Assembly (NCBI RefSeq): GCF_001677475.2
Contig: NZ_CP015229.1
Reading direction: 5' to 3' (one strand)
Origin: Escherichia coli
Lineage (GTDB): Bacteria; Pseudomonadota; Gammaproteobacteria; Enterobacterales; Enterobacteriaceae
Length of the DNA stretch: 64,000 nt
Below are positions 37,291 through 38,043 of the stretch, piece after piece. The translations under genes were made by a program, and so were the position numbers. The notes under the pieces were generated by a model, which was not told the DNA's origin, ran no database searches, and saw only the letters and a program-made list of their open reading frames with translations. How positions within the stretch are numbered: the stretch's first letter is position 1; each line of letters starts with the position of its first letter.

Positions 37291-37346
37291 TGCCATTGGG
37301 CAGAATTAGCTCGGAGTAACAGGTTTTGAGTATTTACAGGAAGTGA

Positions 37347-37880
37347 TGGTGGTGGGGGAAGGATTACTCAGCGCTGCGTGCTTCACCCTTCGGGTCGTTG
37401 CCTGCGGCAACGCTCTCTCGCTGGCGCTCGAGTCGAACCTTGGTCGAAGCTTCTCATCCTTCCCCGCTTGGGCAGAATATTTAATTACGGATTCGTTTGA
37501 GAGTTCAGGGACTTTTGAAAGTTATGGTGGTGGGGGAAGGATTACTCAGCGCTGCGCGCTTCGCCCTTCGGGTCGTTGCCTGCGGCAACGCTCTCTCGCT
37601 GGCGCTCGAGTCGAACCTTGGTCGAAGCTTCTCATCCTTCCCCGCTTGGGCAGAATATTTAATTACGGATTCGTTTGAGAGCTCAGGGACTTTTGAAAGT
37701 GATGGTGGTGGGGGAAGGATTACTCAGCGCTGCGTGCTTCACCCTTCGGGTCGTTGCCTGCGGCAACGCTCTCTCGCTGGCGCTCGAGTCGAACCTTGGT
37801 CGAAGCTTCTCATCCTTCCCCGCTTGGGCAGAATATTTAATTACGGATTCGTTTGAGAGTTCAGGGACTTTTGAAAGTGA
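37347..37880 (-). repeat. three tandem 178-bp repeats in the distal tyrT operon (rtT/tpr region), each beginning with 19 nt identical to the tRNA-Tyr 3' end
   Basis: Units at 37347, 37525, 37703; next period at 37881 is the tRNA gene; partial degenerate copy at about 37321-37346. Confidence 0.9.
37546..37635 (-). CDS. tpr: Tpr-like Arg-rich 29-aa peptide ([29 protein letters not shown]) in the middle repeat
   Basis: Hand-translated minus-strand ORF; the same frame in the two flanking repeats stops after 24 aa. Confidence 0.5.
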
Positions 37881-37965
37881 TGGTGGTGGGGGAAGGATTC
37901 GAACCTTCGAAGTCGATGACGGCAGATTTACAGTCTGCTCCCTTTGGCCGCTCGGGAACCCCACC
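37881..37965 (-). tRNA. tyrT: tRNA-Tyr (anticodon GTA), 85 nt with encoded CCA
   Basis: Minus strand reads GGTGGGGTTCCCGAGCGGCCAAAGGGAGCAGACTGTAAATCTGCCGTCATCGACTTCGAAGGTTCGAATCCTTCCCCCACCACCA. Confidence 0.95.
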
Positions 37966-38007
37966 ACGGGGTAATGCTTTTTACTGGCCTGCTCCCTTAT
38001 CGGGAAG

Positions 38008-38043
38008 CGGGGCGCATCATATCAAATGACGCGCCGCTGTAAA
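38008..38043 (-). promoter_or_regulatory. tyrT promoter: -35 TTTACA, 16-bp spacer, -10 TATGAT, GC-rich discriminator GCGCCCCGC
   Basis: Minus strand reads TTTACAGCGGCGCGTCATTTGATATGATGCGCCCCGCTTCCCGATAAGGG; predicted start about 43 nt upstream of mature tRNA 5' end. Confidence 0.8.

Follow-up and report, generated by a model that had tools for sequence, protein, structure and literature searches.

The window analysed here, a stretch of 64 kb of E. coli DNA, carries on its minus strand, flanked by narI and purU, an element which belongs to the tyrT operon of Enterobacteriaceae, composed of tRNA-Tyr and an array of RtT RNA units. The features of the locus are the following:

36485-37162, plus strand: narI (ORF list)
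37181-37202, plus strand: intrinsic terminator of the convergent narI, boundary of the locus on its far side (terminator scan: 9-bp stem, then a T run)
37341-37899, minus strand: tandem array, 3.14 x 178 bp (Tandem Repeats Finder; spacing of the 19-mer)
37899-37881, 37721-37703, 37543-37525 and 37365-37347, minus strand: copies of the 19-mer AATCCTTCCCCCACCACCA (exact match)
37347-37478, minus strand: RtT RNA copy 3, distal (Rfam RF00391, 134.9 bits)
37525-37656, minus strand: RtT RNA copy 2 (Rfam RF00391, 137.1 bits)
37546-37635, minus strand: tpr-like ORF of 29 codons, in RtT copy 2 only (ORF list)
37703-37834, minus strand: RtT RNA copy 1, tRNA-proximal (Rfam RF00391, 134.9 bits)
37881-37965, minus strand: sole tRNA-Tyr(GUA) gene, 85 nt (ARAGORN; Rfam tRNA model, 53.4 bits; alignment to K-12)
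37966-38015, minus strand: 5' leader of tyrT type between promoter and tRNA, equal to the K-12 tyrT leader
38016-38043, minus strand: tyrT promoter, with -35 TTTACA, a 16-nt spacer and -10 TATGAT, followed by a GC-rich discriminator (consensus scan)
38125-38967, minus strand: purU (ORF list)

The promoter is of the sigma-70 type and matches the consensus at 10 of 12 positions; the 166 nt lying 5' of the tRNA gene are 100% identical to the region upstream of K-12 tyrT, and the alignment distinguishes the leader of the window from that of K-12 tyrV (...GAATTACCCCT). Exactly one tRNA, tRNA-Tyr with anticodon GTA, was detected by ARAGORN across the 64-kb window, and its sequence is identical to both K-12 tyrT and K-12 tyrV; neither ARAGORN nor the Rfam tRNA model, applied to the same 64 kb, found a second tRNA-Tyr in the repeats. 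An earlier note on this DNA had described an intact tyrT promoter, one 85-nt tRNA-Tyr gene and, downstream of it, three 178-bp repeats plus a partial copy, each starting with 19 nt that equal the 3' end of the tRNA, a description borne out in all its parts by the present analysis.

On the opposite side of the locus, an inverted pair resembling REP/BIME elements (...gtcggatgcgcttcgcttatccgacctaca...ttgtaggtccggt...) is found at about 37215-37295, in the interval that separates the narI terminator from the RtT array; K-12 has this pair as well.

Repeat units downstream of the tRNA gene

The array 37341-37899 is described by Tandem Repeats Finder as having a period of 178, 3.1 copies, 97% matches, no indels and a score of 1090. 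Each repeat unit is composed of the 19-nt 3' end of the tRNA followed by 159 nt, which comprise the trailer and the RtT body; the 19-mer occurs four times with a spacing of exactly 178 and, since the match past its fourth occurrence is limited to TCACTT, the array amounts to 3.14 copies. The three full units are very similar, pairwise differences ranging from 1 to 4 substitutions.

All three units exceed the gathering score of RF00391 (45) and cover the full model positions 1-130. In the MFE fold, the RtT unit is closed by a 10-bp stem (GGGGAAGGAU/AUCCUUCCCC) and leaves its 3' end, CACCACCA, unpaired; both the closing stem and the free 3' end are shared with the RtT RNA of Rfam, from which the units of the window deviate solely by the change of a G-C to a G-U pair within a single helix, present in unit 1 and in unit 3. 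A scan for promoters and terminators between the tRNA and the repeats returned no call, and the two are contiguous and on the same strand.

The distribution of open reading frames over the units is uneven. The 'protamine-like' tpr ORF, which is annotated at the equivalent place in K-12, is intact in just one of the three units of the window, and in this respect the window differs from K-12; its counterparts in the other two units, at about 37724-37813 (unit 1) and 37368-37457 (unit 3), are cut after codon 24 by a TGA which arises from a C-to-T substitution. Of 46 units from E. coli-like loci, 11 retain the full ORF, and most of the 151 units of other species keep only 5-12 codons of it; judged from these reading frames, tpr hardly resembles a conserved coding sequence. 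It is named incidentally in a pseudouridine-mapping preprint. On the plus strand, three overlapping ORFs of 99-119 aa run antisense across the repeats (window 37343-37974), and a comparable antisense ORF is annotated in K-12 as ychS; these ORFs are most likely by-products of the repeats and not genes.

The presence of a tRNA-like T-arm fragment within the repeats, also claimed by the earlier note, could not be upheld. Local alignment of the tRNA with the 159 nt unique to the unit gives a match of 13 identical bases, interrupted by a gap of 3 nt, and a score at least as high is reached by 268 of 2000 shuffles (13%); neither in the RtT structure of Rfam nor in the MFE fold does this segment form a T-arm hairpin, its bases pairing elsewhere. 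The segment was accordingly discarded as a T-arm relic indicating a tRNA origin of the unit; the conservation of the motif across genera argues instead for a function within RtT, not for tRNA ancestry.

Comparison with K-12 and the tRNA junction

In the annotation of MG1655, the locus reads narI, ychS, rttR, tpr, tyrV, tyrT, purU, and the tyrT-tyrV-rttR/tpr locus carries the identifiers b1231, b1230, b4425 and b1229; tyrT and tyrV lie in tandem, 294 bp apart, in agreement with the two tandem tRNA-Tyr genes which the earlier note gives for K-12. Both genes are under the tyrT promoter (PMC2887954), and rttR denotes a single one of the repeat units of the operon (PMC3318445; also 10.1101/2024.07.17.603846).

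K-12 and the window agree in the location of the element, with narI and purU on either side, in promoter and leader, in the sequence of the tRNA and in the 3.14 units of 178 bp ending in the 19-mer; the repeats of the window are about 4% different. The K-12-type doublet, in which a second tRNA-Tyr follows the first at a distance of 119 or 294 bp, is absent from the window. Indeed, the alignment of the window to K-12 contains a single gap of 294 bp, which takes out a tRNA gene together with the spacer of 209 bp between tyrT and tyrV; in K-12, this spacer contains a diverged RtT-like unit, with the same 19-mer at its bounds. The junction of the window is chimeric, in that the only tRNA gene is preceded by a leader of the tyrT type (3' end ...GCATTACCCCGT) and followed by a trailer of the tyrV type (TCACTTTCAAAAGT).

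The 294-bp difference, combined with a leader of tyrT and a trailer of tyrV, identifies the window as a tyrT/tyrV recombinant, and the comparison of sequences supports the view that the junction is the product expected of homologous recombination between two identical 85-bp tRNA genes. The unequal crossing-over between duplicated tRNA units that had been suggested in the earlier note finds support in the same two observations; the two findings that would have spoken against it, a second tRNA gene within the repeats and a single-gene arrangement in K-12, were both contradicted by the data.

Alleles of the locus in E. coli and other Enterobacterales

The frequency of the two arrangements was estimated with different probes and different counting rules. 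The doublet junction, searched with a 79-nt probe made of the tyrV leader and the 5' half of tyrV and counted by coverage, is present in 4,832 of 5,425 complete E. coli genomes (89%). Counting by coverage is unsuitable for the singlet junction, since the search joins the two half-matches given by doublets; for this reason the 205-nt singlet probe (tyrT leader, tRNA and RtT trailer) was used with an E-value limit which only a contiguous alignment can pass, and an alignment of this kind was obtained from 195 of the 5,426 complete E. coli genomes (3.6%). All of the 195 are annotated as tRNA-Tyr followed by RtT sRNA, and they come from many hosts and serotypes; with this frequency, the single-copy form is an allele that recurs in nature and is not peculiar to the window.

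A different arrangement is observed in 674 complete E. coli genomes, where the RtT units are replaced by a lipid-modification cluster starting 5 nt past the CCA of tRNA-Tyr, with genes for a fatty acid desaturase, a sterol desaturase/FA hydroxylase, a PAP2 phosphatase and an F390 synthetase-like protein (E. coli Dog168 locus 3096-6050); related clusters occupy the same place in other Escherichia species. The genomes carrying this island include both singlets and doublets, and a count of singlets obtained by subtracting them was therefore rejected as invalid.

Natural single-copy tyrT alleles, in which leader, one tRNA-Tyr and RtT trailer are contiguous, are exemplified by Survcare321, EC1722-1, 214-4 and O157:H7 F7508. 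Survcare321 has one tRNA and three RtT units in a narI-purU spacer of 962 bp, and is collinear with the window without gaps and with 21 substitutions; in other singlets 2, 4 or 5 RtT units are counted. Within serotype O157:H7 both forms occur, a singlet with 2 RtT units in strain F7508 and, in strain 2571, a doublet of the long-spacer type followed by 3 RtT units; the flanking protein accessions of the two strains are identical, which argues that copy changes at this locus are recent and recurrent.

Across the loci examined, the number of tRNA genes ranges from 1 to 2, the spacer measures 34 or 209 nt, and 0 to 5 RtT units are present, five being found in Enterobacter ludwigii, Leclercia adecarboxylata and E. 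coli 214-4; the period of the unit is 167-180 bp across genera. In the common short-spacer doublet, the tRNA-Tyr genes are 34 nt apart (period 119), and this form equals the long form of K-12 minus 175 bp lying between two 19-mers. The existence of so many length alleles recommends caution with assemblies and with copy-number calls at this locus. As far as the window is concerned, it is very unlikely that its single tRNA gene is an assembly artefact, produced by the collapse of tandem repeats in a genome with two tRNA-Tyr genes and maybe another number of RtT units: 85-bp genes that are identical, together with 178-bp units that are 97-99% alike, are admittedly classic targets of collapse, and units 1 and 3 are one base apart, but ordinary reads are longer than an 85-bp repeat set between unique flanks, this junction recurs in the 195 complete genomes, the architecture of Survcare321 is identical, and each of the three units has its own specific substitutions, in a consistent order.

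The polarity of the change was examined by a scan for the RtT core motif in one genome per species, which yielded 96 loci in Enterobacterales, 66 of them with enough context. Two tandem tRNA-Tyr genes are present in 62 of these 66 loci, with a period of about 120 bp in 35 and of about 294 bp in 27, and both the short and the long form are widespread among the genera of Enterobacteriaceae; given this predominance, the doublet is ancestral for the family and the singlet of the window derived. The remaining four loci, with one tRNA-Tyr, belong to Acerihabitans, a Pluralibacter MAG, Xenorhabdus and Sodalis. The opposite polarity, with a single gene as the ancestral state and the K-12 doublet as a derived duplication, could appeal to Acerihabitans, Xenorhabdus and Sodalis, which lie outside Enterobacteriaceae and have one tRNA-Tyr before RtT; it is made highly improbable by the prevalence of doublets both among the species loci and among complete E. 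coli genomes, and by the scattering of singlets over E. coli lineages, where they occur beside doublets within O157:H7.

The sequence context of the singlet is not uniform. Among the 5,426 complete E. coli genomes, the best identity to the window is 97.9% for positions 31000-45000 (14 kb) and 98.7% for positions 44500-62000 (17.5 kb). The window appears to stem from a lineage of the E. coli group which that set does not represent. Compared with a panel of 20 E. coli loci, identity is 94-97% over the segment from about 32500 to 37500, which reaches from the 3' half of narG as far as the RtT array, and 98-99.8% over its flanks. Genomes with the exact NarG, NarJ or YchJ protein are 96-99% identical to the window, or belong to other Escherichia species, which are about 90% identical on the purU side. 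NarG itself (1247 aa) is identical as a protein to a very common E. coli allele, with a DNA sequence about 3.5% different; recoded or synthetic DNA, considered on this account, was discarded, both the level and the pattern of the divergence being ordinary between Escherichia lineages. The divergent nar block, one end of which is near the tRNA, may be an import.

On the promoter side of the tRNA the identity to K-12 is 100%, and on the side of the repeats and narI about 95-96%, so that the shift in divergence falls at or near the tRNA. This position, and the lower identity of the segment compared to its flanks, would be compatible with the arrival of the singlet together with a divergent narGHJI segment, either by allelic replacement from a different Escherichia lineage which was already a singlet or through a crossover with its endpoint inside the tRNA/RtT repeats. 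Such an origin is considered unlikely: the profile could be plain locus-specific variation, and no donor lineage was found, other Escherichia species sharing the NarJ protein being only about 95.8% identical in nar. Even if imported, the singlet would have arisen by recombination of the same kind, only in another place.

Origin, expression and known counterparts

The preferred reading, to which a probability of roughly 0.78 is assigned, is that the window carries the tyrT operon of the E. coli group in a single-tRNA ('singlet') allele, derived from a doublet by recombination between tRNA genes. An ancestral tyrT-spacer-tyrV doublet would have undergone unequal crossing-over, or an intramolecular deletion, between its identical 85-bp genes, and the loss of one tRNA gene plus the spacer would have left the singlet; the exchange may have been RecA-dependent or may have occurred by replication slippage, both of which fit the sequence equally. 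The copy number of RtT would shift by the same kind of recombination, taking place between the 178-bp units.

As to expression, a single stringently controlled promoter would drive one transcript, containing tRNA-Tyr and then the three RtT units. Processing into tRNA-Tyr and RtT is possible because every unit ends in the 19-nt ...CCACCA sequence of the tRNA, with the same trailer next; by analogy with published work on K-12, the 3'-end processing of the tRNA would cut the transcript at each ...CCACCA/trailer junction and release tRNA-Tyr and the RtT RNAs. This view draws on the promoter shared by tyrT and tyrV in K-12 and on rttR as a unit of the operon; co-transcription and processing of the K-12 array are described in part in papers of 1978-1991. 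It has been proposed that RtT affects the stringent response. A more ambitious interpretation regards the tyrT-RtT array as a recombination-driven dosage locus, in which the singlet is selected rather than being an outcome of neutral repeat instability; if this were true, the frequent acquisition and loss of a second tRNA-Tyr gene and of RtT units would tune the supply of tRNA-Tyr and the level of RtT, but such a selective role is held to be distinctly unlikely.

The recombinant singlet allele is already known, is a minority form and is recurrent, and identical architectures are annotated by NCBI PGAP; the descriptive value of the window is thus modest, the single-copy form with RtT units being present in about 3.6% of complete E. 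coli. Singlet strains have two tRNA-Tyr genes instead of three. Textbook-era knowledge already covers the locus with its 3.14 x 178-bp repeat, the RtT RNA and the unstable nature of the tRNA-Tyr doublet. In the phi80 psu3 transducing phages, around 1970, this doublet is reported to have given rise to a singlet by unequal recombination between the duplicate genes. The psu3 singlets were laboratory segregants of a phage, whereas in the window the singlet is an allele of the chromosome of a natural or assembled genome.
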